Source of the DNA: Larinioides sclopetarius
Taxonomy: Eukaryota
Direction: 5' to 3'
Assembly (NCBI GenBank): GCA_964023285.1
Contig: CAXIEN010000102.1
Span: 2,871,528 to 2,935,527 of the forward strand
DNA: 64,000 bases
In this document: one piece after another, positions 963 to 60,166 of the stretch
How positions within the stretch are numbered: the first letter of the stretch is position 1
How the letters are laid out: the number at the start of each line of letters is the position of its first letter
Program-made: the position numbers and the translations under genes
The notes under the pieces: generated by a model
Database searches by the model: none
What the model was told of the DNA's origin: nothing
The model's input: the letters and a program-made list of their open reading frames with translations, nothing else

Positions 963-3900
963 TTTTCAACAGCCCTTTATTCAAAGGTTGAGGGAAAAAT
1001 ATAACAAATATTTTTATTTTGAATGAACTAGTTATATTCCTATGGCATTGCTTTATGGTAGGAAAAACATTGTGGGTATTTCCATTTTTTTTTACCTGTA
1101 TTAAAGCATCTCATTTAAAAATATGAGTTAAATGAAAAGATATGGAAAGCGGCAGGCTTTTGCTTTCTTACATTAAGATAATAAATAGCTACAATCTCAT
1201 GAAAACAGTTTAAAAAACCATAAAATGTGAAATATATCTTTCAAAATTCTCAGTACATTGGAAGAAAGCAAATTCTACAAATTGTTCTGGGTGCAGTGTT
1301 CCACAATGCTGACTTTTATTAAAAACAGCCTGGAAAGAGAAAATGTAAAATAAGAATAAATGCAAAAATAGTAATCGGCAATTTTGATTTTAAGGAAATG
1401 TGTAGCTATTTCAATCAAAGAAAAAAATGGAAATAATCTCAAAAATATATAATTAAACATAAAATAAGAATCAGAGTATTTAAAAAAACAGACTAAATTT
1501 CATCCAACGTTTGTTCTTTCTATACACAAGTCTAACTAAACAGTAGAGATTCCCAACCTACAGTAAACGAAGGACCAGTTGGGGGTATACTAAAGTAATG
1601 TTACTAACGACGTAAACATGAAAATGAAGGGATTAAAATTAAATAAGTTTTACAAAATTTTGTTTCCCCAAGTTTTATGTTAATGTTCAATGAGAATATG
1701 TGCAAGTTTGAAAGCATATTTTTCCAATAAGAAGAGACAATAATAGATACTTGGTTTCTATTTTATTGTCTATAGATATAGGTCTGGGTTTTATGATTAC
1801 ATTTTAAACATAATGCAGGGCATCCCAATTGTTCAATTGAAAATTTGCCCCCTTTTTATAAGTGCTGAATTTGAAGTACATATCTGTAGAATGGTATTAT
1901 TTCACTATTGTTACTTTTTGAAATAGACAAGTGGTTGAAAACTAGGACTTATAAAAATGTCAAATAGAATTGAAATTGAAACCAATACAGCAATTACAAA
2001 GATAACAGTGAATCAGTCTGGTGATGATCGTGAGCAAATGCAAAGAGACTATTACAGCATTTTTAAGTAAGAAATAAAACTAATATTTAAAAGAATAAAT
2101 TAAAACACAAGTGTGCCTCTGAAGAAGAGAAAAAATTCTAATGAACACTGAAAATAAGGATTTTTTAATATGGGAAATCAAGTTTGACCCAACTCCTGTG
2201 CATTGTTTGCAGATAATATAATATATATATGTAAAATAATAGTATGTAATCATCTTCACTAATGCTCCATTTAGAGAAAAAAAGTAAAACTTATAAACAA
2301 AGACTTCTTCCAACGACTATTAAACAACTCCAATTTAACTTCTTATTTGATATCCAAAAACAAAGCAAACAAGAATGTAATTGGAGCATTATAAAAAATT
2401 AACTTTTCATATTGCCAAAAATGGGAAAAAAAAACATTCAATATCACTAAAAGTTAGATATTTCATCGAACATGTCTAAAAATTTAAAAATATTCCCTTT
2501 TATATAACACACTTTTTGAAGAACTAAAGATAGAATTGTCAACATTAAGACTACCATAACTGAATTTTATTTTTTAAAGCCCTTTCTTTCAATACTAGTA
2601 GATGAAGACACTGATGTTTCCAGTTTTCAATTAGGCTTGTTACTGCAAATAATTAAGCAAGTGCATTAAACATTAACCCGGACTTGCAGAGGATAATACA
2701 ATAAATATTTTATTGCATTATCCTCTAATTTTGTGAAAGTACTGGAAGCGAACAAATTTAATGCCATTTGGAATTACTATTGTGAAAACAAAATTGGTCC
2801 ACGTGTTGTGTTGCTTGCAAAAATGCCAAAAAAACTATGGTTAGTAGTAAAGCAGAACTCCACTAATCCAAACTAATTGGGACAGTATGTTTGGATTACA
2901 AAAAAATTCTGATTACCAGAAACTTTATTAAAATAGAAAAGAAAAGGATTTTTGCAAAAAAAAATGTAAAAGTTATAAGTCTCTGTACTATTATCTCTTA
3001 AATTATTTTATTAAAAAGCAATAGAAAGAGAATGTGTATTTTCTTTTCATTAGAATAATGTATGAGATTTGGTATAAAGTGGCCTTATCTCATCAAATTC
3101 AATAAGAAAATATTCTTTCTGTCATTCTGAAGTACTTTGGTATATAGAACAGAGTGAAAATGTGACATCAAGAAACATTATACTTTAGATTTTGGCATAA
3201 TGTTTTTGTTAGATGTTGTTTCAAGTCGAGAATAGCATCACTTCATCAAAAAAATTTCAACAGACCCAAAGGTCTTTAATGTAAATATGTAAGTAATGTG
3301 TTTGTGATAGTTGAGTTATTGCATTAGTTTCCTCAATGTATACAAAATTATGATTGCTTAAAAAGTACTTCTTTGTTTTAATATATTTAAATCTTTTCAA
3401 GTAATCTTTTCAACTATAATTTTTTTATTTCTTTTTGGGTTAACTGTAATTTTGGATTAGTGGGGTTCAACTGTTTTATAATATGTCAGTTATTAAATTG
3501 TTTAGGATACACTAGAGATACCCGACACTATATAATTTTCTGAGAATGGTAATTGCTCACATGGTCTAATGAAGGGGATTTTGATTCCAATTTAGAAAGC
3601 TATCATAATGGTGGTAGATGATTATGATTTGGAGCTCTAAAACTAAATTTAAAAAATTTCAGTCAATTAAAACTACGTTCAAAACGAGAATATTGAAAAG
3701 GACAATCCTGCCTTTGAGAAATGAGTGCCAGAATGAAATGTACATACAAGATAGATACATTGAATAAGAGTCCTACAAAACTACCTTATTTATTAAGGAT
3801 CTTTGTACACTGAAGAAGGAGTACAATTTTTTATTTAAGGATCCTATGAATGAATCTGCAGAAAATCAAAGTTCTTTATTTGCTGATAAAAAACTGTTGG

Positions 3901-6399
3901 TAATTTAACCATATTCAAAATGAGTGCTATGTTACTCTTTAACTGTTAATGTGCAAGAGGGGAAAAAGTCTTGGTAAATTTGTTGGAAACAAGCAAATGA
4001 AACTGAGAAAGAAAGACAATATGTACATCTATATAGATAAATATAACACAGTCTGGTGGAATGAAAACTTTCAAATATAACTACAATGGTGTAGCATGGG
4101 TTCCTATATCACATATTATAACAATACTACAATTCTAACTTTAAATAACAGAAGTATCAACTTTGATAGGGATATCTTACTAATAATGTACTATGTTATG
4201 ATATTTAATAATACACAATGTTTAAAATTCATAAGATGTCTCTGCGGCATATCATTTTTTACATTTAAATGAAATGAGTTTGATATATATATTATTGTGA
4301 ATAATTATTTTACCTTGAAAAGTGCTCATTTGTGAAAATAAAACCCAAAAAATTTTATGAGTACTAAAGCACAGTATTTAAATAAATTTATGTCAAATAC
4401 TATTGACTTTTTTTATCCCCTCTGTAAAATTTAAATTTAGTTATTGCCATTAAATTAAATTATTTTGATTCCAGGTCAATCAACTATGCATTTCTCAATT
4501 AGATATTCTCCCACAATTTTTTGCTTTAGAACATTTCGAATTTTTTGGAATAAAATATCTGTGTGATGCTTTGTGCCTTTGTTATGCTTGGAACTCTCCC
4601 TCGTGTAAGGTTGGAAGAATTTACTTATAGGATCATATCAAACGAGTCACTCTTTTAGTAGCATAAGTTCTATCCACAGACAAATTTTAGTTGCCAAACT
4701 CTTGTCAGATTCATTGAAAAAAGTATTTAATCAAATTCTTAAATTTCATTAAACCTAATTTAACTAATAAGTGACTGCTCAAAACTTTTTGTGAAACTCA
4801 CATATTACTTTACTTTTGCACATAGAAATGAGATGGATATTATGAAGAAAATTTCTCACAAGATTGCCGATACACAAAGTTCAAATGAATTTTGAAGGCC
4901 ACCTTTTTACATTGAGCTCTAAATTTTAGGAATGCAAATTACTGCTGGAATCCACATACTTATCTTGCATTTTTTCAGAAATATATAAATTTAATTTAAA
5001 AGATTTCAAAACAGTCATATAACTATCTTCAAAGTGATTGACAAAATTTATTTAAAAAAACAGTATAGCAGGTTTAAAAAGAAATCAGAGAACAAAATAA
5101 GTTTATACCAATAAATTTGGACACTAAATGCTACAGCAGTGTATAGATTTTAAAAGCATTCAATGAAATGCTTTTTCAAGAAGCCCGCTGGAATAGCATT
5201 CTGCACTATTCTTTCTTAACAAAAAAAAATTGTAAAATTCAAGAATTTTTTTTAACAATGCAGTTTTTTCCAATCTTTACCCTCCAAAATATGAAAAATA
5301 TTTAAACTTATGAAAATAAGAAAGTGGCCAGTGGTTGGCAGGAAGGGATAAAAAGCATTTTAAGATCACAAACATTTAATTGTATTTTTTGTTTCAATTT
5401 CTGAAAACCTCGTGATATTTTCCAAATTATTTATCAGTCTCATGATTTTATAATTTATTTACCCAATTATTATTTAATTTTAGTAATAACTTGGAATCAA
5501 TATAATTCTTTAAAAAATTATTCTTAAACATCTTCATGATATTCACATTTTTAGTACAGTACAAATTGTGTTAATATTTGATTTTAAAAATAAAAGTGTT
5601 GACATTTTATAAATCTGCAACTTCAATACTAAGATTAAATAATTATAGATTTCAAATGCTAAAATATGTTAATATGAAGTAATCTCTTGCTCCAATATCA
5701 ACATTTTGCCCTTTCCCCCAACAATATCACCAGGTAAGAGTGTTCTGGCACTGTTTAATTTACAACTACATCACTCATTTAAACCCAATTTCTACAAAAT
5801 TTAAGCTCCATGAGATGAGCTCAAGAATCTCTTTGAAATTGTATTCCACTTGAATAACTGATTACTATGAATAATAATTAAAAGCATTTATCAAAAATAA
5901 ATGTTAAAATATTTCAATACTGGTTTCATTTGTTTTGGCAATGAATAAAACCTATTGTAAAATTAGAATAAAACATAGAATAAATTCTAAAATTGTATTA
6001 ATTGACTTTTAAAATAAGCCAAGCCCTTAACATTAATAAAAACTTCTTTGTATGGGAATGGGATATAGAAAAATAGGCAGGCAAAAAAAAGCATTATCCA
6101 AGTATGCAAGAGCAAAAAGGTTGGAAATCACTGACTTTAGTTTTTGAGAAGATAACATTAGAAAACATACCAAAGATTTGTTATGTAAAAACATTTTATG
6201 GATAAATCTATTGGTAAAAATATACATAATCTAAGTTTTAAAATGGATACCTTAATTGCATTGTTAACCAATTTTGGTGGTTTATTTCATGGAGTACAGT
6301 TGTCGATGAGAAAAAGAGTTTCTCCTCTTCTTCTTCAGTACTGTTTTGAAATCTATCAACTAATCATTAAAATTTGCTTGAGTCTTCCATGATTTTTTG

Positions 6400-7330
6400 A
6401 TGGATTTATAGCATAGCGATGTTGGCAATCCATGGCATTGATATAGAGGTTTTGAAACAATGAAGTTTTTGGATATGCCAAAGTAACCTTTCCTTTCGCT
6501 ATTTCCGAATTGTTACAACAGAACAGAATGTTAATGCATATGCGTTGGTTGGAAACTTTACCTCTTACACTCTTGTCTCCCTTGGTTCAAGTTGAAAAAA
6601 CACTCCAGCTTTATCCGCATTAACCACATCATTCAGTCTTACTTCTTGATGAATGCTGCCATTTTTTCATGACATTGATTAACATCTCATTAACACCTCA
6701 CTCGTCTAACCAGAAATGCCTTTGACCGCCATACCATATCGCGCTCGGAAACAATTTAACACTTTCTTGAAAATTCTCAGAAATTATAAGGCTTTTTCTC
6801 AAATTAAAGGTCGATCAGAGGAACGTTTCTGAACGAACATCTCAAAACCATTTAAAAGCACTGTATCAGCATCTTCAAATTGCACCTTGCATATCCTTTT
6901 TCTGCTTGCACCAAGAACAGAAGTCTGCAGTTATTTCAAAATGCCTTCTCAATCCTTCAAAAAATATGACAATAATGACGGAGATATGCCATAATTTTTT
7001 ACCACTTCACTTATCTTCAATCCTTTATCTACTTTAGAAATAATGTTTTCCTTTTCTTCCAATGAAAATTGTAGGAGCAATCATGTACTAAGATAACGAG
7101 CGTAAAATACGAAATGTTTAGAAAAATTTCTAAAAGATGTTCATCTGAGTTAAACAGAGAATATGAATCTCTACGAGAATCTAACATAACGGGTTTTGGC
7201 CAATTAGCTCATAGGATAGTGCCACGTCATCGACTGGCGCGGAATTTCTATAGTGTGTTGGTTGGCCAAAACTTCTACAATGGAATTTATTGAAGAAGAA
7301 GCTGTGTGCTTGTTATTAGTTGAGTGAACT
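6400..7330 (-). pseudogene. degraded pogo/Tigger-like (CENP-B-type) transposase remnant
   Basis: Minus-strand translation gives LNDVVNADKAGVFFQLEP, matching the pogo DDE motif NADETGLF. A further piece ERDMVWRSKAFLV resembles the RFKxRHG helix-turn-helix region. The frame is broken by stops and frameshifts, and no terminal inverted repeats were found. Confidence 0.4.
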
Positions 7331-10300
7331 ATGAAAGAAAATATATTTTTTAACATAAATATTTCGTTGTATCGAAATCTTCAAAAATCGATGATTTCTT
7401 TATATTGATATTCATTTAACATTGGTTTAACTGCTCTTCAGATGGGGAATTCTATGGCTTTTGTAATAACGGGATTTTTCGTTGTATTGGTATTTGTTAT
7501 AATGGGAACTTACTGTATTATATTTTTCAATGGTTGTACAATCTAATAGAAACTTTTCAAAAAATAAATTTGTCTATTATATTTACAAAAATTATCTTTT
7601 GTTCTATCTTTCTACACAGAATTTTTTTTTAAATTACTTGATCTCAAATATTTTAAAGTTCATTTCAACCAAAATAATTGCTTCTTAAAGCAAAATTTTT
7701 TTTAAAAATAGATTTAATTTATATTAAGAACATGGTCAAATTCTGAGTTCGGAAATAAAGTCAGATCGTTGTATCGATTAAGTAAATTAATGTTCTGTGG
7801 CATCAAAAATTCTTTAAATATATATTTCTCAATGGTTGTACAATCTAATAGAAACTTTTCAAAAAATAAATACAACAATGTTATCTCATTTGAACTTTGA
7901 AATTAACAGTTACTGGGTATAAATAGTAATAGATATATAATAATGAAATTAGTAGCAAAATGCTGACACTCAAATCTGAAAACATAATTTAACAAATAGC
8001 TGATTATATTTCAAAAATTTGCTGGAAAATGCTACAGAAAGATTTTTACGTGATATAGACAACAAGAATACTTGATATATTCTTATTTGCACAATTAATA
8101 TAATTTTAAAATAAATTTTGAAGATGGAAAGAATTACAGATTTGCAATATGGTGGGCTTGTAAAAAATATAGCCACACATTTCTAGAAAACCATGGTAGG
8201 AAAAAAATATAATTTTACTTACATATATGCAAAATTTTTCATCAGGTGATAGAGAATTTCGACTCATATTCATTCTATGATAAGGCTGAAAATACATATA
8301 TATTAACATAATTTTTTTTTAAGACTCCATATTATTGGCATTGTACTGCACAAAAATTTATTTAAACCTTATTCAAGCACAAATTATCTCTATTTCGCAA
8401 AAGGTTTCAAAACATTTTTATCATACATACTATTTCATTGAAAATAACATAGTCACTTGCCAATACTGGAAGCTAAAAAGTTACATATTTGTTTTTCCAC
8501 TAATACAAGAAGGAATTTTTTTGAAGCAGAAATTTTCTATGAATTCATCACATCTGACTTTGAATTCAATAAATAAACATTTAAAATCTTCTTTATGCAA
8601 AACTTAAAATTTGAACTATGAGCAGCTTTCCCTTATACATTACAAAAATGTTGACAAGTAAAGTATGTATCTCGACTTATATGTAAAGAAGCAGAAAACT
8701 AAAATTTAAAAAGAGAATTCTGTATTCTGAGGGTTATTTAACCCTTTCTAAGCATCTGGGAAGAACAATTGACCATTAATATATAGACTGTAAGCATGTC
8801 CATTCAAAGAAAGATCAGTTAAGAGTCATGAAATGTCTTAGAACAGCTTCAGTAATTTATTATAGGCCAGTTTTTATCTTTAGATTAAATTAATTCTAGT
8901 ATGCCAACAGAAAAATGTTTTCATGAAAATACTCTTTCCTAATGACATGAAATTGTGAACATCCATATATCAAGTGTTTAACAGTTCCCTAGTCCAAGCA
9001 ATATTAGAGGATTTCCCAAAAAGTTTAAGTTATAAGTTTTTTTTTTAAGTCTCCAGATTGTAACTATGGTTTGAACCCGGAAACAGTCAGAGACTTGATA
9101 TATGGTGCCAAAATTTTTGTGCCATTAGGAAGAAAAAAAGATTTTAAAAAATAAGAAAAGATACTTACCAAATTCAATGTATCAGACCAGAGATACATTG
9201 GAGTCTGCTTAAAACTGCAAAGATGTTTCTGAAGAGTAATTGATGACTTGTAAACAGAAATACTACAATTAAACAAGCACTTAAAATCTTGAGTAGCATT
9301 TAAAAAGAAATAAATAAAATCATGATCCAAGTCATAGGTAATTGTGAACGGACTGCCTCCAAGCGACTGTCCAACAGTGACATCTAGATATTAAAAAGGA
9401 ATTTCAATAAATACAATGATTACAACAATAGTAATAGAGAAAAGAACGTGCATGATTTTGCATATTTATATTGTTTCATTTCATTTAAAGAGACAAAAAG
9501 AAAAACAATAATTGTCAAATATTATCCATCAAAAGAGCCTATTTTAACATCATCCAGTTCCATACAAGAAAAATTTACATCTTCCTTGCCTCACATTTTT
9601 TATTTATGCTATTACAGAATTTAGATTAATAGATATAATAAGTTTACAAAACACTTTTATTTATAATACTAAATCAAATTTTATTTTATAGTTCAGAAAT
9701 ACCCTGATTTGTATCTCTCTCAAGAACAGTATCTTTCTTTTATTAAAAATCAACTGAGAAGTTGGTTTCAGATAAGAGACTTTACATAAGAAAGCAAAAA
9801 ATACAGGCAATACACTTGTTCATTAGATTTTCTCAAAATTGTTAATAAACAAGAAAAACAAAAAATTTTTAAAGAACTTACTACTTAAAGAATAATTCAT
9901 AGCTTGAACTGAAATCAATTCACCAGTTTCATAATGGACATAAAAGTAAAATAACATGGGTCTCTTTGTTGGTATACTGAAGCAAGGAAACAAGATGTCC
10001 TAGAGATGAATTATTAATATATAGTGGAAAAAATCAGATGTCTTAATTAGAAAACAATTACAAAAACCATTAATTTAACCAACCATGACAAAATTGTTCA
10101 AATTTTAATCCTTAATCATTCCAGTTTTAATCTTAAATTTTTAATTAAGCTTACAATACATGTTTGCTGATTTTATTATCATGTTAGAATAAACAAATTC
10201 ATTAAAGTTATTAGAATTTAGATCAAAGTAGACTCATAAGTTAAATTATAGCAATTGAGAAGTTAGAAATATCAGCAAAATATCAAAAAGTGCTGGAATA

Positions 10301-10940
10301 CATATTTTCTTAAAAGAGTTATAAAATATATAAGTTAAGAGTTATAAAATGTATTTAAAAAATAAAGTATAGCAGGTATTGCCCACTTAAAAAATATAAT
10401 TGTTGCTTAACAAGCATTTCTTTGATTTGTCTTTCTGAATTTAGAAGAATTTTTCCTTCCTTTCTTATTGAATTGTTCATTTTTCCTGTGTTGCTGTACT
10501 AGATAAACATCAAGAAGTCATAGAACTTCTTGCAACTTTTGGCATTTCTGCTTAAAATTCTTGTAAAGACATTTTCTTAATATAATAAATCCATCTCCTT
10601 CTCATAGGTCTCAATAAGTTTTAAAACCATATGAATGAGTACATTCTATTAAGTAACAGATATAGAATTAAAACTACAATTCTTATTGCAAAAATTTAGT
10701 TATTGATTGGTCATTTATAAAATCTTAAAAAATCCCAGTCGGCAAGCCAGAATGCAAATGTAGATTCCTTTTGATTGGAGACATTAAGAAAAGTACAATA
10801 CATGCTCTAATTTCATTACGGTTAGAGTTACAAAAATAAAAGTTGATGCAAGAGACTGCAAATAACAAGAGCTTAAAAACAAGGTGTTACATACATTGGT
10901 TGAATTTCAATTTTAATTTTAGGAGGGCTCATAACTTCTA

Positions 10941-13494
10941 CAGGGTTCCCACTCATATCCTGCACCAAAATTTAAGGCCTTTTTAGGGGTTTTCGAAGGC
11001 TACTCTCGCTATTTTTAAGGCAGTTCGTGTAACAAAAATATGATGTACTATTAGCAACTAATTTTAACAAATCTGTCACAAAAAAAATGTTGAACACGAA
11101 ATTTCAAAACAAAACAAAATCAACAATAAAGGAAACTACATAAGTTAACAATTCAAAAAGTTTTTGATAATAAATAATATTTTAAAAGAATTGATATTAT
11201 TCTTGTTTTAATCACCTATTGTACTCTTAATAACAAAAAGAGTACAAAAATTTAAACTTTTCTTTCTCAGGGCATAGAAAACTTTATGTTTGAATACACA
11301 AAAATGCACCAAAAACAGAGAACATCATTACAAGAGTGGAAAATTAGTGTTAATTTAACTCAACATAACAGAGCCTTGGAACTTCATAAATAATGAATTG
11401 GACCAATCCTAAATATCAAGAAGTTAAATATTTGATTAAATGAAGAATAAAATAAATAAATTAAATAAGAAGCATTTGAGATATTAAAAATATTGTAGAA
11501 TTATTAAATTACAGAAAATTACATGGCTGGATTTAGTTCTTGAAGGACTCTATGCAAATTAAAAAACTACAGCCTTACACCAACAACCTGTTATAAAGGC
11601 ATCTAAGGAAAAACAGCATATGGTTTTTTTCACATTTCTTGGTAAATGTCCAAAAAGCAAAATTTTTATACTGTAACTGATATAGGTATTTATAATAATT
11701 TTTCAAAAACTATTTCATTAAAAAAAAAACAGTTAACAAGAATATACATAATTGAGGCAAATTTTTTAACCAATTTTTAGTTAAAAGAATTCTCTAATTC
11801 AGAAACAACGGAGCTTTTACTCAGTTTATATTGATTTTATAATATTATGAGATCTGACAATCTTGTTTCAGGTGTTATTGTTTGCAAATAGTTCTAGACT
11901 ACTTTTAGTTTTCCCAAACTACATCCCTTGGATACAATACCTCTTGGAAGAGTTAGTAAAATATTTAAAGCACTTACAAACTTTGTGCAATGTATTGAGC
12001 AGAATTAATTTCAAAACTTTTAAAAATCCTAAATCTATCTTAAGAAAACAGGTATGGATATTTCATCACAAAATTTTACTCTTGTTGTATCCAATGGTTC
12101 TCTTATCTGTTATAAAGATTTCCAAATTTTGACTTTTTCCGAATGGATTTTTTTCACTGCAATCGGACAAAATTGAAAAATGTTTAATAACATTTTAAGT
12201 GGTATAAAAAAAAATTCTGTCCTTCCAGACTTTTAACACAAGGACAAAAATTTTATATAATATTGAGTAATAAAAAGTCTACTTCAAAAATTAAAAAAAA
12301 AATACTTTAAGCTGCTTGGCTTCTCTCTTAGGCCATCACTATAACAAATTTCATATCTCACAGCAATTTCTATGTTGCTCTGCAACCAGGAAATCACCTT
12401 ATATATTATATATATGATGAATATTAATTATCTCCATGAATATTAATTATTTGTCTTGCATTATAATATTTATATCTCTTATAGGTAAGTCTGTTTAACA
12501 GTTTTTCTTTATATGTCAATTAGGAGTGTAATGCTTTTCATTATTAGATTAAACACTATAAATTAAAGAAACTAAGTTTTTTAGAATAAAATATTTTTTT
12601 AACTAAAAGTAAACATTAAAGTAAAACAAAAAGTAAGTAAAGAAAAAAGTAAAGTGAACATTTAAACATATCAATGAATAAATGCTAAGAAATATAAATG
12701 TAGAGAAATATTTTATATTGCAATACAGCAGAAGTTCTAATTTAGTCCCATGAAACTATCTAATAAAGCAACTGGAGAAGGAAAAAAGTATAAGAAAAAA
12801 AAAGCTAAACAAAGCTCTATATATATATTAATTACTGTAAAATAATACCTTTACAATTTCATCATTAGTACATAAAATTAGATTGTTTTATTATTTTTAG
12901 AATCTTTTCAGAAAATTCTCTAATCATTCAGGAATTCTTTACAATTTTTCTCATTTTATTGAGGTAATTTTGTACTTTAATTTTTTTACTCCTTGCTGAT
13001 AAATGGAGTGATCATATGGACATGAAAAGTTAAAATTTGATATCAAAAAAGGGAAAACCTGCAGATTTGGGTCATGTCTGTTCAACTTCTTAAAGCATCA
13101 AATGGTCAGGCCTGAGGCGATAGGGGAGACTGGATGATGGTCCAAATGGGGGAAGAAGTTCTAGAATTTTTGCTTTAATTCAGATCTTCTGACAGTGAAT
13201 AGCTTGAGGCAGTAGAGGAGACTGGAATGAGGGTTTGGAAGTAGAGGAATATCTCTTTTCTGTACAATCCAAAGCAAGGATGTGCCTCTTAACTCTGCAG
13301 TGCAAAATCAGAAAGCATTCAGTCTTCACTTTCCTAAATTTTGGCACCGAGAGCATTAAGTGAGGTAAAAATTAAGGCCTCGTATTAGAAAAAGGGTTGT
13401 TTTAGGGCCTTGAAACAAATATTATGGCCTTTTTAGGGGCTCCTAAAAGGATTTTGATATTTAGGGGCTTTTTTAAGGCTTGTGGGAACCCTGT
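10941..13494. mobile_element. non-autonomous DNA transposon with CAGGGTTCCCAC termini and 5-bp TSD TTCTA
   Basis: Left end cagggttcccac starts at 10941 and right end gtgggaaccctg ends at 13494, a perfect 12-bp terminal inverted repeat. Both ends are flanked by ttcta. There is no long ORF. Internal ggcctttttagggg sub-repeats occur near both ends. Confidence 0.65.
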
Positions 13495-13694
13495 TCTAAA
13501 CAATTGCAACTATTGAGAAAGTTAAATTGGAAAAATTGTTCGTTATAATAAGACACTAATTTTTCTGATACAAATGTTCTTTCTATTTTCAGCAGTAAAA
13601 GAATTATGAGAAAATGAAAACTTTCACCTGCCACCCATTTCCATCCCTTTTGAGCTGAACAGCCCATATTTTAATTCAACTGAGATTTTCACTA

Positions 13695-16600
13695 GAGATG
13701 TAATGGATATTCGACAACTATTCGGTATTCAGCCTTTTTGCTAAATATTCAATATTAGGCTTTTTGCCAAATATTCAGTTAACCGAATACTACGCAGATA
13801 TTTGGCAAAATATTTTCAAGATATTAATTTTTTAAAAGTATTAAATGATAAAAAAAATTCAGAATTATATTTTATTGCATTTTATCTAAAAAATATATCA
13901 TTTACTGAGTTTTAAGATATATATATGTATATAATTTATATATTATTACAAATGTTTACATATATTTAAAATTATGAAATATATAGCACATAAATGAACT
14001 TAACAATTTTATATGTTTCTAATGGTTGTAAAGCCTACAATATAAGCAAGCATACATAGCATATGCAAGCAGTGATGTGGACTGGGTAAATACCCAGTGG
14101 GTAGGTAAATATTTTTTGGGTATATACCTGGGTAAATACCCCAAAACTGGGTATTTTGCGAAAAAAATTTATTTTTGAATGCTGAATTGTAAGGAAACAT
14201 GCAAAGCTTAATAAATATTCCCCAAAACAAGCATTTACACACAAAAAAAGTATTTGTGGGTGGTCATTCAGAATTAAGCTTAAAAATTATAAATACCCCA
14301 AATAGGGTATTTTCCAAAAATGTAGTTGAGGGTGATTAAAATTGAAGCTTTAATTTTATGACTGTCTTTACACTGAATATTTTGTGCAAGCATATAAAAT
14401 TTATAGCTAATTTTTTAACTTTAAAAATTTTGCAACAAATGCAGTTTAGAATTTTGATTCAAAATGAGACCTTTAGATTTATAAATATCCTGAAACCGTG
14501 AATTTTTTTAATTATTTCCAAATGGTGATTTAAAATTAAATTTAAAAATAAAAAGTACCCATAAATTGGGTATTTTGTAAAATCGAAAAAGTATTTGCAA
14601 AATGACAATTTAAATCAAACATAAAAAAATTATAAACATAATATATATAAATAGTTACAATTTTTTTTATTTAAAGTTTTAACTAAATTATATAAACAAA
14701 TGCCAATTTCTCTCTGGATGCAAAATAAAGTGTTCTAATTCTTAAACGAAACAGGCGAATAATTTTGATTCACGGATTGGAAACTTTGATATTTACAATG
14801 GAATAATTATTTGTAAAAATGCTTTTGTAATACTGGCCGCCTTCAGCTACCAGCCAATTTGCGAGGATTATAATTACAACTAACTTTTTTTATGAGTAGT
14901 TTGAAATTCTAGGACCAAAGTAATTTACCTGAGTAATTTTATACTTCAATTGTGATGGAGGTTTAGACACTTTCTGTAAATACTCTAGCACTTCTTTTGT
15001 TGGTGTTTATTTGGACGTCTTAATAAGGTCAAGTTACTGTTCGTTTCTAATTACTTTTAAATTGTATGAAATCCATGGGAATACAATTTAACAAATTTAT
15101 TTCAAAATCGAAATACCTCGGCACTTTTTATATCCAGTAACATATTAACTGGCTTAGAACAGGCTGAAAAAAATTAATTCAAGTATAGTAACCATAATCC
15201 TTGAATTTACTGGACTATTTCCATTCATACTTACCATCTTGATGACTTTCTTTACAGATTTCAGAAAAGAAGATGAGCAAGTAAAAAGAAAATCCTATGG
15301 ATTATATTAATTTTAAACAATGGCAGAGAAAAACGCAATTAAATATTCGTTTAAAAACAATAAAAGCGATTTGAATTTCATTGTAACAAAATTATTTTTG
15401 AAAATTTATTAAAATTTAAGAACAAAATCGAGTGAAAACTCGATTATTAGCTCGACTATCATCACTGAAAATTTAAGTTAAATTTAGTTTTTTCAATGAC
15501 ATAATTGAAAAGGTAAGCTAAATTTTCAAACAGAGTAAAAATAATTTTTTGTTGTAATATTTTCGGAAGTTATTAAGAGAAAATTCTAAAATTACATTTA
15601 CTTTCGTATTAAATAAAATTATAATTAAGATTGGAAATAATTACACAGTGCACATTCCCACTCTTTGTTTATACTAATTTTCGTTTCTCTAAGCATGGTT
15701 TTCTGCCTTGTACATGGCCAAAAAGCACATATATTTTTCTTTATTATTATTAAAGATGAACAGCTCTAGTGAATCTTGAGATCCATAATTTACTCACATT
15801 TCCATGCTAGAAATCAGACATTTTTATTTTTATTGAATGAAGAGTAGTCATTTACTTGGCTATTTCTATCAATTTTATCTTAAATCTTTTTTTTAATTAA
15901 AAGTTATTTTCTTGGAGCTTTTAATGTTAAGAAGGATAAAAGTATATATTGTAAGTTCTGTAATGTGTTGAGTACAATCTAGGCCAGGTAAGCAAATACA
16001 CAGACAAAAAAAGAAAAATATTTCGTAAGTGTTAGTAAATCAAAGTAGATTTTGAGAGAAATGAAATAAATAATGAACAATCTTTTAATTAGATCGCAAC
16101 CATGACGCTTCAACTTTAGAGTCTTAATAACAACTATGTACTGATGTGTTGATGATCCAGATGAATCCCGTCTAAATGGAAAACTGGGTGTGTGTTAACG
16201 TCAAATAATGTAACATATTCAACCAAAGAAAGAAAAAACACGCATTTCTTATTGCATTTTTTTAAAATAAAATATTTTTGTTGAAAGTAATATGAGTAAA
16301 TACTACTTTTAGATAGTTCATATTTATAAACTGGTAATTTATTATTTTCTATCATCAGCTCTTAATCATTTTAAACCAAACTCAACATTTTCTTTTTTTA
16401 TTTAATTGAGTCTTAAAAATGATTAATATTTAAGCAACATATTTTATGGACGATCCATGATATAGTATGGCGTTTTGTTTTTCTTTTCAGATTCTTTTAT
16501 TTTATAGAATTAAAAAAGATTCATATATTATTAGTTCTTTTTACCACACCTAATGCTCATATATTCAAAGCATATTTATATTATATAGAGACATCATATT

Positions 16601-27000: not shown

Positions 27001-27437
27001 GAAGAAAGTAAAAAGTTCATTATGTTTTTCAACAAAGTTTTTTTTCCCTCAGTAAAAAAAAAAACATGGTTTTTTAACCCTTTACTTGCCAAAGTATTCA
27101 GTATAATTCTTTAACCTTCAAATGGGAGGGACGCTCAGAGAGACCCGACTTTACAGCTTAAAAAGCAATCTACAGACTGAAGGTTAAAGCTTAAAAAATC
27201 TGAAAATTATTCTATAAGTATAAAAATTTCTTTTTAACGACAAATAAAAAAATCATTACTGCATATTGATAAAAATTTATTATTTTTCAGGAAATTTCTT
27301 CGTAAAAAAACCTTGTTCCAATTTCATAGTATTGGCATGCACATTTCATAATCAATGTTGGTTTATTTTACTCAAATCACAAGAACAGTTGAATATCTTA
27401 AAAAACTTAATGGCTGACAGCTTTTAAAAAAGTTAAT

Positions 27438-27552
27438 ATTATAGAAATTTGAAAATTATTATTATATTATAAATTTGAAAATTATTATTATATTATATAA
27501 ATTTGAAAATTATTATTATATTATAAATTTGAAAATTATTATTATATTATTA
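27438..27552. repeat. 27-29-bp minisatellite (AAATTTGAAAATTATTATTATATTAT)n, array half 1
   Basis: About 4 tandem units. The same unit resumes at 30975. Confidence 0.8.
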
Positions 27553-30500
27553 CTAGCTGACCCGGCAAACGTTGTTTTGCCATGTAAATAATTTCTAGAG
27601 AATTTCTAGGGTAGAAAAAAAATAACTAACTTATTGTAAGTGTGTAAGGATGTGGTATATGAGTGAAAAAGGCATGGAGCGCTGTGAACGATGAGGGAAT
27701 ATAAAAATAACAAAACACCAAACATTATTTTTAAAATTTATTATAATTTATTTTAAGTAATAATTATTTATATCATTAATTCATTACATAATATTAATCT
27801 CTTAATGCTACAGCGTGAATAATATTTTTTGTTAGCAAGTCTTTAGCTAATACAAACAAACTTGATGGTTTACCCACTCGAGAGCATGCAACGTATAATT
27901 GTCCGTGTGAAAAACATGGTGTGCTCAAATCTAAGCCACAAACAGACATTGTTTGGCCTTGGGATTTACTAATAGTCATTGCAAATGCCAATCTAATCGG
28001 AAATTGAATACACTTAATTTGAGTTGGCACATCTGTGGGTATAATAGGTATACGTGGTATATATATATTTTCACCTCGAAACTTGTCATTTAAAATGGTG
28101 GCTTCGATAACGTTTTTCATTAATTTTTTAATTACTAATCACGTACCGTTGCACAGCCGTGGAGGGTTCAAATTACGAAGCAAAATAATTGGAGATCTAA
28201 CCTTCAATTGTGAGTTATGCGGTGGCATGCCTGGCAAATCCAGTGAGTTCAAAAACTCTGTTGGAAAATTTACAGTTTCAGTGGCATCGCAAACTGTATC
28301 AATAGATTTATATGATACCATGTCCCCCGGCAATAACTGTTGTATCTTCAGATTCAAAATGTTTTCCACACAATGTGTTCCACATTTTTTTGCCGCTAAA
28401 ATTGATCTTTCTGCAAGCCACTCGAGATTTATGTAATTCGTGTGTACATCGGGAAATATTTTTCCAATGAGAGCATCTTGCGATTCAATGATTGTGCAGA
28501 AATCAGTCGGTAATTTTACGCATCCAGTTTCATCTATAGTGACTTTTCCATCGTCGATATCTAAGAGTTGTTTTGAGAATGTTTCAGCGGATGGATCTTG
28601 AAGCATTTGAACGCGCATATTTACTTTCAGCTATACTTTTTCAACATTACGCCACAATGGCGATGATTTTAAGCAGGCGTTGATTTCATCAGCGTATGTT
28701 GAACGTGGAATGACGGGAAGTGTTTGTCTGAAGTCACCTGAAAGGACTAAGAGTGCCACCAAATAGTTTGTTGCTGTTTTTAATATCTTTCAATGTCCTG
28801 TTCAACGCCTCAAGCGAATGTTTGTGTGCCATGGTACATTCATCCCAGATGATAATTTTACACTGTTTCAGCACTGCGGCTATGGACGATTGTTCTTTTA
28901 TGCTGCACACTGCGTCAATGTTATTTTGAATATTTAGTGGTAGCTTAAATACTGAATGAGCTGCTCTGACTCCATCCAATAAAGTTGCCGCAATACCCGA
29001 TGATGCAACGGCCAATGCGATGCCATTATTTGATCGTATTTCGGCGAGAATTAGCGAAATAAAGAATGTCTTGCCAGTTCCACCTGGTGCATCTAAAAAG
29101 AACCCACCTTGTCCTGCTGAAACTGCGGCGAGCATAATGCGGTCGTAAATGGTTCTTTGTTCCTCATTCATTAGTGGGACATTGCGAGTAACAATCGCCG
29201 CCATTTCTACAGTGTTGTACTGCAGTTCACGATTCATTTCAGTGTTCATTAAATCAGTTGCACCTCGATTTGGCGAATTCATACCGAAATGACTGAGTGG
29301 TAAGTTGGCAATGATAATGCAAAGATCCTCAATCGCAATCAATGCTTCATTGTGCATATCGTCGCTGAATGTTATCTCGAGATCGTTACACTGTGTACAA
29401 TGTTGATGCAATATATCATCAGTCATTGAATCTTTGTGATTATCCCACAATATCTCTGCTCGGGCTGGAAAACATGTAGTCAACACTATAGCGAATAGTA
29501 GATGAATTTGTATTGCTGTACAGTTCAATGGTGCTTCAGCAAGCATACATTCCCACTGGTTGTCATCTTCCAGCAAGGCATGCATCTTTATACGTTAGAT
29601 ACTGTTGCCCATTCACTTTACGTATATCTTGAAATGACAATGGGCCAGTAACATTAACCAACAACAGTCGAAGATAAAAACACTCAGTCTGTCTTAGATT
29701 CACTGTAAATACTCGCCCAAGGCGTTTGATTTGAATAAATTGGGACATGCATCAACTGGTGAACCACGCAATTGCGCCATTCTCACACGCGCTCCAGTAT
29801 TTTCTTCCTAAACTTGTTCTTCGGTTCTTTGGGCTCTTCTATTTCGAATGCTTCTAGATTTATTTGTATCACGGCTTAAATTGGCCCCTTTGCGTTTTGT
29901 TGGCATTGTTCACTGTACAATACAAAACACACATAAATAGAACTGATTGAATTATTTAATGATGAAAATTATTATATTAATAATTTATTTTATCTTTGAT
30001 TACATTAAATATACATGTAAAAATTAGATAGTTTCACAAAAGCGAAAAATTTTATTTTTCTTAATTATATCGAAAATGCATATTGTTAGAAATAGTGAAA
30101 AAAAAAAATTCTGTAGAAGTTAGAGCTCTTATAAATAAACACACAAAAAAAAATTCCCAATTGTAATAAAAATCTAACTTTCACCGAATTCGTTTTTCAC
30201 CATTCCCAACAATATTTTCGTTATAAATACGAAAGAATAACGTATAAAAAGTAATTTATACTTACAACTCAATAGCCGTTGTTTGCGGGAACTCGTGACA
30301 CGTGTTGAGTATTTTAGAGGTTATGTAAATCACTTAATTAACTGATCGTGCGAATTACACTCAAAATTAATAATTTTATTAGTTATTAATAATTAATTAT
30401 ATTCAATAATATTAGTTATTAATAAATAAATAATAAAGTTACTTGAGAATATATTTGATATGAGAGTTACACTGAGATAGTGAAAATGTTTAACTACTAC

Positions 30501-30974
30501 GCTTGACGCATAAACACTAATAATAGCCGAAAACTGTAGAGGGAGTGAGAGAAGGCTTATTGTTTGAGAGAAATAGGAGACCATCTTCGTTGTCATCCCT
30601 ACTCCGTGCTGTTTACTGGGTGAGAAGTGACACCGGTAGACACATGGAGGGGATGACTTACCAAGTGATAATAATTGATGTTATCGAGCGGGATAAAAAA
30701 ATGATAAAATTATTAAAATGACTATTAAAAAGCAGGGGTTGGTGATAGAAGAGTGAAAATTTAGGGTTATATGTATTTTTTTAATGTCACATAATACAAA
30801 AATTTAAAAAAATTTATCCAAAAAATTGGGGTGGACACCCCTTATCACTTAGGGGTTTGAAAGATAGATAGTAGCCGATTCTCAGACTTACTGAATATGC
30901 ATAAAAAATTTCATAAGAATCGGTCGTGCCGTTTCGGAGGAGTATGGGAACGAACATTGTGACACGAGAATTTT
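27553..30974 (-). mobile_element. Helitron remnant, Rep domain absent
   Basis: On the minus strand the 3' end reads hairpin ggcaaaacaacgtttgcc, then gggtcag, then CTAG, followed by host T at 27552. The 5' end reads TCTAATATATAAAA, preceded by host A. Removing 27553-30974 restores a perfect minisatellite junction tatattatta|tagaaatttg. A Pif1-like helicase lies inside. Confidence 0.6.
27794..29760 (-). pseudogene. Helitron Pif1-like helicase domain, frameshifted into four or more ORF pieces
   Basis: Motifs seen: SFQDIRKVNGQQYLTYKDACLAGR and HALLEDDNQWECMLAEA (the Helitron helicase N-terminal signature). Walker A GGFFLDAPGGTGKTF. IIWDECTMAHKHSLEALNRTLKDI. The C-terminal piece FAMTISKSQGQT..GQLYVACSRVGKPSSLFV. 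Confidence 0.8.
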
Positions 30975-31150
30975 ATATATTAGATAGAAATTTGAAAATT
31001 ATTACACAAATTTGAAAATTATTATTATATTAGTATAGAAATTTGAAAATTATTATTATATTATTATAGAAATTTGAAAATTATTATTATATTATTATAG
31101 AAATTTGAAAATTATTATATTATAGAAATTTGAAAATTATTATTATAGAA
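30975..31150. repeat. same minisatellite, array half 2
   Basis: About 6 units of tagaaatttgaaaattattattatattatta. Confidence 0.8.
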
Positions 31151-32439
31151 ATTATTGGATAATTATATATTTTCCATTTAATATTTTTCTTGAACCATTC
31201 TTGTACTGAATGAGTTGATAAGCACACTAGGCCACTTTCCTACATGAAACTATATCCGTCCAACTGAAAGTACCGACCAGTCACTGTTGATATCGACTAC
31301 GAAAAACAAGTTTTTTTAGAGAAATCACCGGAGTTAGGAGGTAACATAGTGTGCTACCGACCGCTATTGTAAATAATTTCTTTCAAATTTGGCTGGCGCC
31401 AAAGCACTCAGACTGGTTTTTTAAAAACGAAGCAAAAAAAATTAGGATCATTAATTTCATCTGGCCATTTATTTATGCTGGATTGCTGTTTTCCATATTG
31501 CTAATTTAGAATACTTCATTTCCCCTATTTCTTTGGATTGAAAATTTTCTTTCAGAATTTTTTGTTTTGTAAGTAGTCGTGCAATTTTTTTTCTTTTGGT
31601 TGTGATATTGCATTATTTAGCATGTAGCAAAATTTTATGAATTTTTCTTCTCTTGTGTGCATTTTTAGGTGTTAGTGCACACAATCAGGAGCAAAAGGCA
31701 GGACTGTGTGCGAAAAAATTTTCATCAAAAGGATAAATGATGCACCACCCAGTAAACCCAGCCTAGAATGATCTCTGCATAATAAATTATTTTTTCATTC
31801 TTAATTTGCATTTTTGTGCAAAAAGTAAGCTTTTTCATCGGGATTTTCTTCTCGTCCAGATGTAGAGGAAGGGATAACTACAATTTATCTGCAACTCCCA
31901 TCGCATTTCTCTTTTTTGAATAGTGTTCTGCAAAGGCAATAATTTATCTGCAGCACCCATTGCCATGCTGCACTGATGTCCTAATTTTTTAAGGATTTTG
32001 GTTTACAGAAACTATGAGATTTGAGTGTGTGTGTGACATCATGATAAACCAGTGGAAGTAGCCTTCCCTAAACGTTCTCGTATAGTTTCCCTGAATTGGG
32101 TCGTTTCCCATCTACCAGCTTTAATAAAAAAAAAATCCACCGAATGTAAAAACTAAAAACCTGATAAAAATTTTTGAATCTGCTCTTAACGCGAAACGTC
32201 ATTTTCACGTAATTAAAATAATCTAACTAATATCAGATTTCGCCAAAAGGAAAAAAAAGCATCCAAATGAAAGAAAAAAAAAACACCTAGGGAAGTCCTA
32301 TTAGACACAATATTTTCCTTTGCTCACAAAACGACGCTTTGCGCATGCATGCGCATTAAAAATTTGGGGAAGCAATTAAGCCACTTCTATTTACACGAAT
32401 GGGGCGAAATTTTTACATAAGTGTGCAATTTATATTAGC

Positions 32440-46381: not shown

Positions 46382-46945
46382 TTAATATGTTCTAGGTAGA
46401 GCTGTAATCTAATGTACTTCTGCTTCCTAAGACTATGTTTCACTAAGAAATACACTACCCCAAATGTTGATGCCAATTCATTTTAAATTGACAATGACAT
46501 ATTACAAAGAGCAATCTGATAATATTGGATGAAAAATGCCAACATGTAACAAAATGTAAAATTCTTACCATAAACGTTAATTTTTAATCCTATATGAAAT
46601 GGATATCCTAATGGAAATAGATAATATAATGGATATGGAGCAGGCAAATGACGAATCAATAAGCAAAAATAGACTTATTCTGTTTAAGAATCTCCAAGGA
46701 AATTTAGGGCATTCAAAAAATAATTGTGAATGAAATTTAGAGCACCATACATTAAGTTGTCAGATTAAAGGAACGAAAATCACAAAACTACACAAGTGCT
46801 TTTTTTTTATAAAAAATCTTATCTCACCAACTCAAAAGTCACTTATTTTGTTACTAATTGGTAACTTTTTAAATTATTAATTAGTATCAAATTAATACCA
46901 ACACATGACAAACAATCACATTATTTAATACTCCATAAAACTTGC

Positions 46946-47264
46946 CTAGGTCTCCTTGGGCAACTCTTCCTGGGATACTTGGGATTCCTCATCAATGTAA
47001 GGGTTCTTGGTCGTCTAAATTGGACAGTAGTTCTAATTTTCCTAACTCTGGTTCCATGGGCTCCTTTAACTACTTTCTTCTTAGCTGCTAGAGCTTTTGC
47101 TTTAGCCTGGGCAGCACCTAACTTGCCTTTTCCCTTAGGGGCTACCTTTTCACCTTTACCTGCTGGCGCTGCAGCAGCTTTAGAAGCAGGAGGGACATTT
47201 TCTTTTTTTGTCTCCTTGGGTTTCTCTGTTTTTGCTGGCTTAGCAGCAGTGGCTGCTGCTTTTG
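46946..47264 (-). CDS. RpL23A: ribosomal protein L23a coding exon (N-terminal A/K/P-rich extension through ..[31 protein letters not shown]); initiator exon not located
   Basis: Acceptor tcttcag|CAAAAGCAGCAGCC. Translation: (A)[57 protein letters not shown], matching the uL23 region [37 protein letters not shown]. The exon ends AG|GCAAGT, an apparent GC-AG donor. The phase joins correctly to the next exon. Confidence 0.85.
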
Positions 47265-49825
47265 CTGAAGACAAGATATATAAAATTAGAATTGTTTCCT
47301 ATAATCACATCACAAATATTAAAACAATTATCTGGTTCTTCAAAAGCTGATTTTCTTCAATAAAATAAATTTTACATTTAAAAACTTAAAATAACCACAT
47401 TTTCAAGTTAATTCCTACATCTTAACAGTGGAATGGCTATCATTATATAAATACTAGTTGACAAAGTAACTTACTACATCTGAAAAAGTTCAAGATTTTT
47501 CTATATTTATATTAACAGTAATGACTATTTAAAAAAATGCTATAGGCACTGGTGACAAGAATATTGTATACTAAATTTGTGAATATTTATGAATCCAAGA
47601 GTTTACATTTAATTCAATATAATCTTCATCTTATAAAATTTGTATACATGGTGCAAATAGCCCCTTTGTTTTTCCCTGTTGACAAGGTTTGTTTTCATTT
47701 ACAAATCCCAACCCAGACGTGGATCTTTCCGCTAATCGGTTGGGCAAATCATGCGTTGCGAGAAATCTTCTTTTCATGAATTATTGATTTAAATAAGTTA
47801 GTGAAGATTAGAATACATCTCAATAGAAAAAAAACTGGCATTTGGTCGATTATAAATCCATATCGTCCTCAAATCACAGTGCATTCATTTTAGCGAGCAG
47901 GGTTAACATAGCAAACATGAGAGTTGCGTCGAATTTTCCTGGGGGTTGGCGAACTTAAGCGAGCAAGAGAAGGAGCCTCCGTTTTATAAATTTTAAGATT
48001 GATCAATGATGCAAAGAGAACATTTATAAAATAAAATTATACTTTACAGTTATTTTATGCAATCACCTAATTTAGATGGTAAGCATATTAAGAAATATTT
48101 GTTCTCCTTAAATGCGAAATTTATAGGCAAGAAAATAGCTCATCAATTTTTCGGTTTTCTGGAAATTTTATTTTGTCCTATGACATTTACTAATTATAAA
48201 AAGAAAATTTAAAGGTGATTTTTCTAACTAAAAATTTCACAGATAAATATGTTTAATGAGAACGCATATTTCTCAATAGGTATACCGTTTAAATTATATT
48301 AAATATTCAAGAATGTAATGATCTGTCTCCTATCCTATATAATTTTTGAATGATAAAAACCGAAATATGCGAACGGCAATAAAAATAATTCACAGATCCA
48401 GAAATTCCGGCTTTGAAAAAGGTTCAACTACGGATCACAACCACTCGTTATAGGAACATGCTACCGATTATAATTTTCTTAGTCTCTGTTGATATAAATT
48501 AATCATATCTTCACAAAATTGGCTTCTATGAACACACTACGAACTAAAGCAATCATTAAGTAAATATGGAAGTTAATAATCCGAATTATTATCTTTAAAA
48601 AGAAAATCTGAAATGTAGATTAATTAAGAGTTGTATTTAGGCATAAGTAGAAAGATATAACGATGTCAATCGGTATTTTCAGTTTTTCTTTTATTAATAA
48701 ATTAGAATAAAAATAATGTAAATTAAAATAGAATCAAAAGACGAATTCAAGATTAAATGAATCTGCAAATTGGCATACGTAACCACAAGCGACAGGATTT
48801 AGGCTTAAGAACGATGATAAAGCCTCGATTAATCTCTTTACATAAGTACTTATAAACTGCATATTGATATCCAAATAAAGTCGATGGTAATTACACAATA
48901 AGAAAACTCGCATATAAATTAATATATCTAATAACACAATTCGACATGAATATAACCACGAGGTGGGATATCCGAACAGCCATGTTAAAAAAAAATAATA
49001 CAACATATATAAAATATTAAAGAACTTATAAGCAAAAATATTACATAAAAATCAATTCAAACTAATATTAAAATAAAATTACGTTTTTCTGATGCTCCTT
49101 TCTTTGATTTCGGACCCATTTTTATTCAATATAACTCTTACACCGCGTTAGAAACACGTTTTCAATTTTTCCAAATCCAGAGTCAGTCACAGAGAAACAG
49201 TTGTGTTGCCAATCTCCTACTGACGAATAAAATAAATTATTTGATAATTTATTTTCATGCCTTTCCAAAAAATTTCATGATGATTTAACAAATAGATGTA
49301 ATAGCTTAGTTCTCTATACTCTATTTACGTTAAAATAATTTTTTTTAATAAATTTGGATTTAAAATTGTAAATGATTAATGTGCAGTTACAGACCTGCAG
49401 CACTATAGTGTTAGCTATCATTACAATAAAGAAGTTACAAGATTTTTTTTATTTTTTAATCGATTCTGCATGCTAAAATTAGCCTCTATACAAAATTTGA
49501 GGCTGAACGAGATTTTTTTTTCATTTACAAAAAAAATATTAAAAATTGTCTTTTTCGAAGAGTGCGAAGACGAGTAGATTGGACCTTGGTGGAAGTGGGT
49601 GCCTTCGAGGTAAAAGCTGACAGCGTGCAGCCAATGATATTTCGAAATTGTTCATCAGCTGCGGAGATTGACCAATGGCTGACGCCAAAAAATCACGTGT
49701 CAGCGTATTTGACATCACATGCATAAGGTCCATTCAAAGTGTGACGTCGCACCACATGAACTCCGCTTGCGGGTGATAGCGCTAGCAATGAAAAGCTTGC
49801 GGTGTTAAAACTATCGTATTCTTTC

Positions 49826-59778: not shown

Positions 59779-60166
59779 GTACAATAAACATATTCTATTT
59801 ATAAACATTTAGAATCAATTTATAATTCCGTACCTTCGAATACTCGGGGATTTTTATATTATAATTGAATAGTATTTCATAATTTGCTTTAGTTATTGCA
59901 TTTAATTTAGTAAACTGGTTATTAAGCATCGTTTTAACTGATGTAACTGCAGTATATTTTCTTACTTGCTTTATTTTAAACTTGAATATGTTATCCGTAT
60001 TTGGCGTGACTTTTTCTCGCCAATGTAAGTGTACATAATAAACATTACTGACAAATTTTTCTTTAATGGAAGTTATTTGAACACTAAATCTTTATTATTT
60101 CATATATGTCTTTTTCCTCGTTATTATTTTAATTGTGACCTTATGAACTTCAATATCATCATTATA

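Follow-up and report, generated by a model that had tools for sequence, protein, structure and literature searches.

A 64-kb stretch of the genome of the spider Larinioides sclopetarius (contig CAXIEN010000102.1, forward-strand positions 2,871,528 to 2,935,527; hereafter the window, whose own numbering is used throughout) carries at positions 27553-30984 a 3,432-bp segment that is almost certainly a canonical Helitron copy, inserted between the A and the T of a pre-existing AT-rich minisatellite without duplication or deletion of host bases. The sense strand of the element is the minus strand of the window, which is 29% G+C and almost without coding sequence. A sequence-only reading of this DNA had proposed a Helitron here, and that identification is supported by the termini, by the coding content, and by independent copies in other genomes that share the same ends. 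The loss of the Rep domain, the decay of the coding region, and the membership of the element in a published family were absent from that reading. The features that define the insertion are the following.

27553-30984, minus strand: the whole Helitron copy, non-autonomous, delimited by direct reading and by the same first and last bases in independent copies.
27553-27556, minus strand: the 3'-terminal CTAG (CTRR motif), kept in four of the loci listed below (L001, L003, L006 and L008) and in the published element Ptep_Hel2Ca.
27564-27581, minus strand: the 3' subterminal hairpin, from DNA folding and conservation of the stem.
30865-30984, minus strand: the conserved 5' terminal region, starting 5'-TC (TCTAATATATAAAATTCTCGTGTCACA...), from a nine-sequence alignment.
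27436-27552, no strand: left half of the AT-rich minisatellite, 26- and 28-bp units, last base A27552, from Tandem Repeats Finder and unit dissection.
30985-31153, no strand: right half of the minisatellite, 31-bp units, first base T30985, from the same two analyses.

Both ends of the element were read directly from the sequence. On the minus strand it starts at window position 30984 with TCTAATATATAAAATTC, preceded by a host A that is the complement of T30985; the terminus is the TC of a Helitron 5' end, in the sequence TCTAATATA, and the tip reads TCTAATATATAAAATTCTCGTGTCACAATG. The 3' end, at 27553, reads ...GGCAAAACAACGTTTGCC GGGTCAG CTAG and is followed by a host T, the complement of A27552; the terminal reading is ...ATGGCAAAACAACGTTTGCCGGGTCAGCTAG. 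The subterminal hairpin, GGCAAA-ACAACG-TTTGCC, consists of a 6-bp stem and a 6-nt loop, and is separated from the CTAG by the 7-nt spacer GGGTCAG (27557-27563), such that the stem ends 11 nt from the last base; this arrangement of hairpin, 7 nt, CTAG and host T is exactly what the sequence-only reading had described. Folded as single-stranded DNA, the last 60 nt have a free energy of -7.7 kcal/mol, compared with -3.5 +/- 1.7 in shuffled sequences (z = -2.4). The stem of the hairpin is kept across copies and its loop bases vary, and no compensatory change in the stem was found within the family, a comparison that covers only a few sequences.

The same ends recur in copies from other genomes, which were obtained by fetching DNA around homologues of the helicase protein encoded by the element and by one metagenome scan with the 5' 27-mer. 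In the list a slash marks the border between host and element, and paired labels denote one locus.

L001, Cotesia glomerata, 4349-10028: 5' end a / TCTAATATATAAAATTCTCGTGTCACA, 3' end GCCGGGTCAGCTAG / t.
L003/L004, JGI contig, 2794-14520 in L003: same 5' end, same 3' end.
L005, Eumeta japonica, from 4401: same 5' end, 3' end truncated.
L002, Cinara cedri, from 5946: same 5' end, 3' tip mutated.
L006, Parasteatoda tepidariorum, ending at 10580: Hel2-type 5' tip near 7676, same 3' end.
L008, metagenome contig, 1,509 bp: same 5' end, same 3' end.
L007/L009, metagenome contig, from 2249: same 5' end, 3' end not in the contig.

Six independent insertions, represented by seven fetched loci, thus start with a / TCTAATATATAAAATTCTCGTGTCACA or a close variant (L001, L002, L003/L004, L005, L007/L009 and L008), and four (L001, L003/L004, L006 and L008) end with TTTGCCGGGTCA(G/A)CTAG / t. 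In the window, as in every fetched copy whose ends are intact, the element lies between a host A and a host T. The flanks of all copies are mutually unrelated, and in each copy the similarity to the window element sets in and breaks off at the same bases. When the copies were examined for ends at other positions, or for ends lacking the hairpin and CTAG, which the sequence-only reading had named as the observation that would speak against it, the Helitron reading survived. The 5' terminal region has a mean column identity of 84% over the nine aligned sequences, and is 91% identical to that of Cinara cedri over 120 nt.

A segment between two related arrays that happens to begin with TC and end with CTAG, or the pseudogene of a host PIF1-type helicase, could in principle resemble this element with no transposon insertion at all, as both motifs are short and the flanks are AT-rich and of low complexity. 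Such an origin is vanishingly improbable: 120 nt at the 5' end and approximately 60 nt at the 3' end, non-coding sequence included, are conserved among at least five other genomes, the similarity stops exactly at the terminal bases, and the minisatellite halves, once brought together, restore an exact unit in phase. A host pseudogene or a chance pattern was rejected on the shared ends of the independent copies.

Two of the copies have structures of their own. In L007, the 5' approximately 262 bp of the Helitron are present in tandem triplicate (2249-3153), directly after the canonical start at a / TC, similar to the 5' tandem repeats noted in Papilio machaon by Han et al. (PMC6544945). In L003, the part from 7992 to 14520 belongs to a copy with correct ends whose helicase 3' half is divided into five blocks, separated by inserts of approximately 0.2-2 kb that may be nested insertions or intron-like sequences.

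The minisatellite provides a second definition of the boundaries. Tandem Repeats Finder reported arrays at 27436-27552 and 30998-31147, and the start of the right array at 30985 was set by eye. A 17-mer core of the repeat, AAATTTGAAAATTATTA, occurs 10 times in the window, and 10 of 10 occurrences lie inside the two halves. Excision of 27553-30984 yields a 31-bp unit, AAATTTGAAAATTATTATTATATTATTATAG, that is identical to the intact neighbouring units at 31039-31069 and 31070-31100, and the 35-mer spanning the junction is present intact at 31052 and 31083; the unit lengths after excision are 26, 28, 26, 31, 20, 31, 31, 31, 25 and 28 bp. Since the halves rejoin to an exact unit, the array is older than the insertion, and nothing was duplicated or lost. 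By exact reconstruction, the predicted empty site would read ...TATATTATTA / TAGAAATTTG..., that is, the uninterrupted array ...TATATTATTATAGAAATTTG.... Among random pairs of cuts in the two halves, 2.2% give a 34-mer junction known from the intact array, and within +/-4 bases of the proposed cuts only the pairs (0,0), (-1,-1) and (-2,+3) do so, (-1,-1) being the trivial A/A ambiguity.

These results revise the coordinates of the sequence-only reading and leave its structure in place. Its junction, tatattatta / tagaaatttg, is obtained exactly by deleting 27553-30984, and its proposed comparison of that junction with the array units gives the identity of the rebuilt unit just described. The right boundary, which it had put at 30974, is 10 bases off, and deleting 27553-30974 gives ...ATTATTA / ATATATTAGATAG, which is no unit junction. 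The claim that both boundaries are defined to the base therefore stands for the element, whose ends are fixed by the family and by the phase of the array, and fails for the right coordinate then given. Likewise, two halves of an array do flank the element, with the spans 27436-27552 and 30985-31153, and the bases 30975-30984 that had been assigned to the array are part of the Helitron. The unit length, stated as 27-29 bp, was measured as 20-31 bp, with 26, 28 and 31 bp the most frequent. The absence of a target-site duplication is borne out by the exact phase of the array and by the L003 flanks (...taa / element / tct...), which have no duplicated bases in common.

Several points weigh against the insertion as set out here, or against the exactness of its ends. 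The array on its own leaves a 1-base A/A ambiguity at the boundary, and, as its flanks share TA/TA, is compatible with a 2-bp TA duplication; both matters are settled only by the family ends. A real empty allele or an orthologous uninterrupted site was not seen, and the left-flank 27-mer had 0 matches in JGI metagenome contigs; exact-sequence look-ups of the 283-amino-acid helicase ORF and of the Tc1-like transposase described below likewise gave no match. No second copy was found in the 64-kb window, where searches with either terminus at up to 3 mismatches, and blastn of the whole element against the masked sequence, returned only AT-rich noise.

The shared TA bears on a further alternative, a cut-and-paste DNA transposon that duplicates a TA target site. 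The flanks, ...ATTATTA and TAGAAA..., share TA/TA, as do those of L001 and L008. Terminal inverted repeats are absent, however: the best end-to-end local alignment scores 7, a value reached or exceeded by 300 of 500 shuffles (shuffle mean 7.07). Moreover, the protein of the element is a RepHel and not a DDE transposase, the flanks of L003 show no duplication, and the empty site predicted with one TA fewer, ...TATATTATTAGAAATTTG..., contains a unit that is seen nowhere in the array. A TA-duplicating DDE transposon has a negligible probability and was rejected on termini, protein, L003 flanks and array units.

The two halves of the minisatellite differ in organization. On the left, 26- and 28-bp units form a 54-bp higher-order repeat at 98% identity, and on the right the units are 31 bp long; the interrupted unit belongs to the right-hand variant, which places the element at the border of two unit variants. 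(TA)n-type simple repeats adjoin the 3' ends of two other copies (L001, 10029 onward; L006, 10581 onward), and insertion into AT-rich repeats seems to be recurrent in this Helitron family.

Minus-strand open reading frames (ORFs) between 27794 and 29748 match two Pfam entries, the PIF1-like helicase PF05970 (E = 3.7e-40) and PF21530, the Pif1 2B domain. The longest ORF has 283 amino acids and contains the Walker-A motif GGTGKT; among its homologues, those of Cinara cedri, Cotesia glomerata and Eumeta japonica reach 85-90% identity and those of Araneus and Parasteatoda 76-84%, and several of them are annotated as Helitron helicase-like. The interior of the element is made up as follows.

27557-27796, minus strand: element 3' non-coding region, 3' of the helicase stop, 86-88% identical to L001 and L002 in the same BLAST segment.
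27797-29765, minus strand: remnant of the RepHel C-terminal half (pre-helicase linker, PIF1-like superfamily 1 helicase and 2B domain), from ORFs, Pfam, and tblastn against the L001 ORFs.
29765-29768, minus strand: internal deletion junction, from BLAST block structure and a junction alignment.
29769-29906, minus strand: remnant of the RepHel N-terminus (MPTKRKGANLSRDTNKSRSIRNRRAQRTEEQV, then a stop), with one in-frame stop, matching residues 2-47 of L001 ORF1 at 63% identity in tblastn.
29907-30864, minus strand: element 5' non-coding region, approximately 72% identical to the 5' regions of Cotesia glomerata and Eumeta japonica, and therefore family sequence rather than captured host DNA.

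Compared with the 5.7-kb Cotesia glomerata copy, the window copy retains 5' non-coding sequence (element positions 1-778, 72% identity), the first approximately 47 RepHel codons (1079-1216), and, from position 1220 onward, the whole of the remaining 3' part (87% identity). An internal deletion has removed approximately 2.2 kb, equivalent to L001 5558-7769, including the whole Rep/HUH region; the junction string is GAATGGCGCAATTGCGTGGTTCACCAG, with imperfect microhomology CGCAA(TT)GC. The L001 counterpart of the missing segment encodes Helitron_like_N (PF14214, E = 1.3e-43) and a match to REP_ORF2-G2P (PF23343), and Helitron_like_N is found in the longer relatives L001, L002, L003 and L005 exactly within the segment lost here. 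Because relatives carry Rep at the deleted position, the window copy is a non-autonomous member of a Helitron lineage. In what remains of the C-terminal half, at least two frameshifts and three in-frame stops, one in the linker and two in the helicase, have left a minimum of four separate ORFs; with the stop in the N-terminal remnant the stops total at least four. The copy is dead as a gene and unable to move on its own, and both of its termini are intact.

That the element is instead autonomous and potentially active is highly improbable. Its canonical termini are intact and the 283-amino-acid ORF has both a GGTGKT motif and a strong PIF1 match, but no Rep/HUH domain is left, the 2.2 kb with Helitron_like_N are gone, and frameshifts and stops interrupt the helicase and the N-terminal remnant. 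This candidate was rejected by the ORF analysis.

The order of deletion and insertion is a closer question. In one scenario, to which we give an appreciable but less than even chance, a full-length element inserted at this site and was afterwards deleted and mutated in place. The short, imperfect microhomology at the junction fits local repair or slippage, and neither the window nor the fetched loci yielded another copy with this junction, a survey that within the host genome covered these 64 kb. Template switching during rolling-circle copying, however, could equally give the same microhomology, and deletion derivatives are the usual mobile form of this group: Ptep_Hel2Ca, 2.9 kb long and without Rep, is present in 345 copies (PMC6544945), and L008, a derivative of 1.5 kb, retains both ends intact. 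Because Rep-less deletion derivatives dominate and are the amplified form here, we lean towards a deletion that preceded the insertion, with the deleted copy then mobilized in trans by an autonomous relative.

The steps of such a transposition are drawn from established Helitron biology and from experiments with Helraiser (PMC4778049). A RepHel protein would nick the donor strand between A and TC, and its 5'-to-3' helicase would peel that strand off until the subterminal hairpin paused the helicase, leading to cleavage at the CTAG 3' end. The released circle would then integrate at an AT dinucleotide in AT-rich DNA. For Helraiser, AT-dinucleotide targets, a preference for AT-rich sequence over approximately 20 bp around the site, a hairpin terminator and circular intermediates have been described (PMC4778049).

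A published classification offers a place for the element. Han et al. 2019 (Mob DNA 10:25, PMC6544945) described Hel1 in 27 insects and a spider, and the related Hel2 in Parasteatoda tepidariorum; both have a 5'-TC, a 3' hairpin followed by CTRR, insertion between A and T, and evidence of horizontal transfer among insects and spiders (PMC6544945). Their rule assigns elements to one family when the first 30 bp are at least 80% identical, and to one subfamily when the same holds for the last 30 bp. The last 30 bp of the window copy are identical to the Ptep_Hel2Ca consensus (30/30, 100%) and differ at one position from the genomic P. tepidariorum copy L006 (29/30, 97%). The first 30 bp are 84% identical to L006 (26/31 columns), a value that rests on one genomic copy; against this stands the identity to the published consensus, taken from machine-read optical character recognition (OCR) text, of only 78% (25/32), below the 80% threshold. 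With Hel1 the identities are lower at both ends (72% over the first 30 bp to Csup_Hel1Aa and to Cves_Hel1Aa, and 70% over the 3' 30 bp), and the element falls outside that family. From these terminal comparisons the element is assigned to Hel2 in the scheme of Han et al. 2019, and by its 3' end to subfamily C, with the 5' end a borderline case. The exact 5' variant of the window copy was not found in the text of their supplement, and occurs in Cotesia glomerata, Eumeta japonica and metagenome contigs.

Ptep_Hel2Ca is similar to the window copy in its interior as well as at its 3' end. Both the hairpin and GGGTCAGCTAG fall within the identical last 30 bp. In the helicase and 3' region, identity is approximately 84% to the OCR consensus over 2.2 kb and 77% to the genomic copy L006; the 5' block ACTCCTCCGAAACGGC..GACCGATT..ATGAAATTTT is conserved, and both elements have lost Rep by deletion and retain the helicase part. 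They differ in the 5' tip, which is TCTAATATATAAAATTCTCGTGTCACAATG in the window copy and TCTATATATATAAAAATCTCTTGTCACAGT in Ptep_Hel2Ca, and in the location of the internal deletion. Hel1 elements (Csup_Hel1A, Cves_Hel1Aa and others) share with the window copy this 5' block and the general layout of a conserved 5' region of approximately 126 bp, a variable interior, a hairpin and CTAG, and the RepHel proteins of the autonomous partners of Hel1 and Hel2 are more than 86% identical (PMC6544945); the terminal identities of Hel1 to the window copy, however, lie below 80%, and its hairpin stem is GACAG.../...CTGTC.

Two further systems were compared by their features rather than by their DNA sequence. 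Helraiser and HelibatN share with the window copy the 5'-TC, the CTAG-3', the subterminal 3' hairpin, integration between A and T in AT-rich DNA without duplication, and a RepHel protein with a PIF1-like helicase (PMC4778049); at the DNA level no sequence relationship to them is expected. Helraiser is a reconstructed autonomous element that is experimentally active, whereas the window copy is defective. Hel_c35 of the Cotesia vestalis bracovirus has the hallmarks of arthropod Helitrons and a link to Cotesia and to horizontal transfer (Heringer et al. 2017, PMC5714489). Unlike the window copy, it is intact and autonomous; it spans 5,294 bp, lies on a viral segment and has its nearest relatives among Drosophila Helitrons, and the two are set side by side here by description only (PMC5714489). 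The 3' terminal 29-mer of the window copy had 0 matches in IMG/VR viral contigs, a collection of mostly prokaryotic viruses in which this result carries little weight, and a search of literature full text with the terminal sequences returned only unrelated primer matches.

At the nucleotide level the window copy is 88% identical to the copy of the aphid Cinara cedri over 2.2 kb that include non-coding 3' sequence, 87% identical to that of the braconid wasp Cotesia glomerata, and 86% identical to that of the bagworm moth Eumeta japonica. Its identity to the copy of the spider Parasteatoda tepidariorum is only 77%, below that to the three insect copies. An element in a spider that is 86-88% identical to insect copies and 77% identical to a spider copy fits the horizontal transfer reported for this group. 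We consider it probable, if with some reservation, that copies with the 5' end TCTAATATATAAAATTCTCGTGTCACA form a Hel2 sub-lineage that is absent from Han et al. 2019 and has passed by horizontal transfer between spiders and insects of at least three orders. If so, the range of Hel2 would extend past the single spider of its description. With this comparison the aphid, Cotesia glomerata and Eumeta japonica join the genomes with Hel2-like elements, a modest extension of the published horizontal-transfer pattern. The element belongs to a known family and is a textbook case that adds nothing new on the mechanism of Helitrons; its value lies mainly in annotation. Because both of its boundaries are exact to the base by two independent lines, the family ends and the minisatellite phase, it could serve as a positive control for Helitron-finding software, and its presence or absence is a candidate marker within the host species.

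Elsewhere in the window, a complete Tc1-like DNA transposon occupies 60165-61676 on the plus strand, with 28-nt terminal inverted repeats (60165-60192 and 61649-61676) that are 96% complementary and an uninterrupted ORF for a transposase of 343 amino acids (60417-61448). The best protein matches of this transposase are all from spiders, with Araneus ventricosus at 91-93% followed by Trichonephila and Stegodyphus, and the element is possibly still active. The first coding exon of RpL23A lies at 46921-47274 on the minus strand, encoding the Ribosomal_L23eN domain and an Ala/Lys-rich N-terminus. Within the window, this exon is the chief indication of a spider host, to which the transposase matches and the block described next also point. 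The exon is 74% identical at the nucleotide level to a Trichonephila clavipes contig; its named matches are weak, the best, at 79%, being a T. clavipes entry flagged 'UNVERIFIED_CONTAM'. Upstream of this exon, a collinear 61-bp non-coding block (49065-49124) is 87% identical to the same T. clavipes contig and is possibly a 5' untranslated exon or a promoter element.

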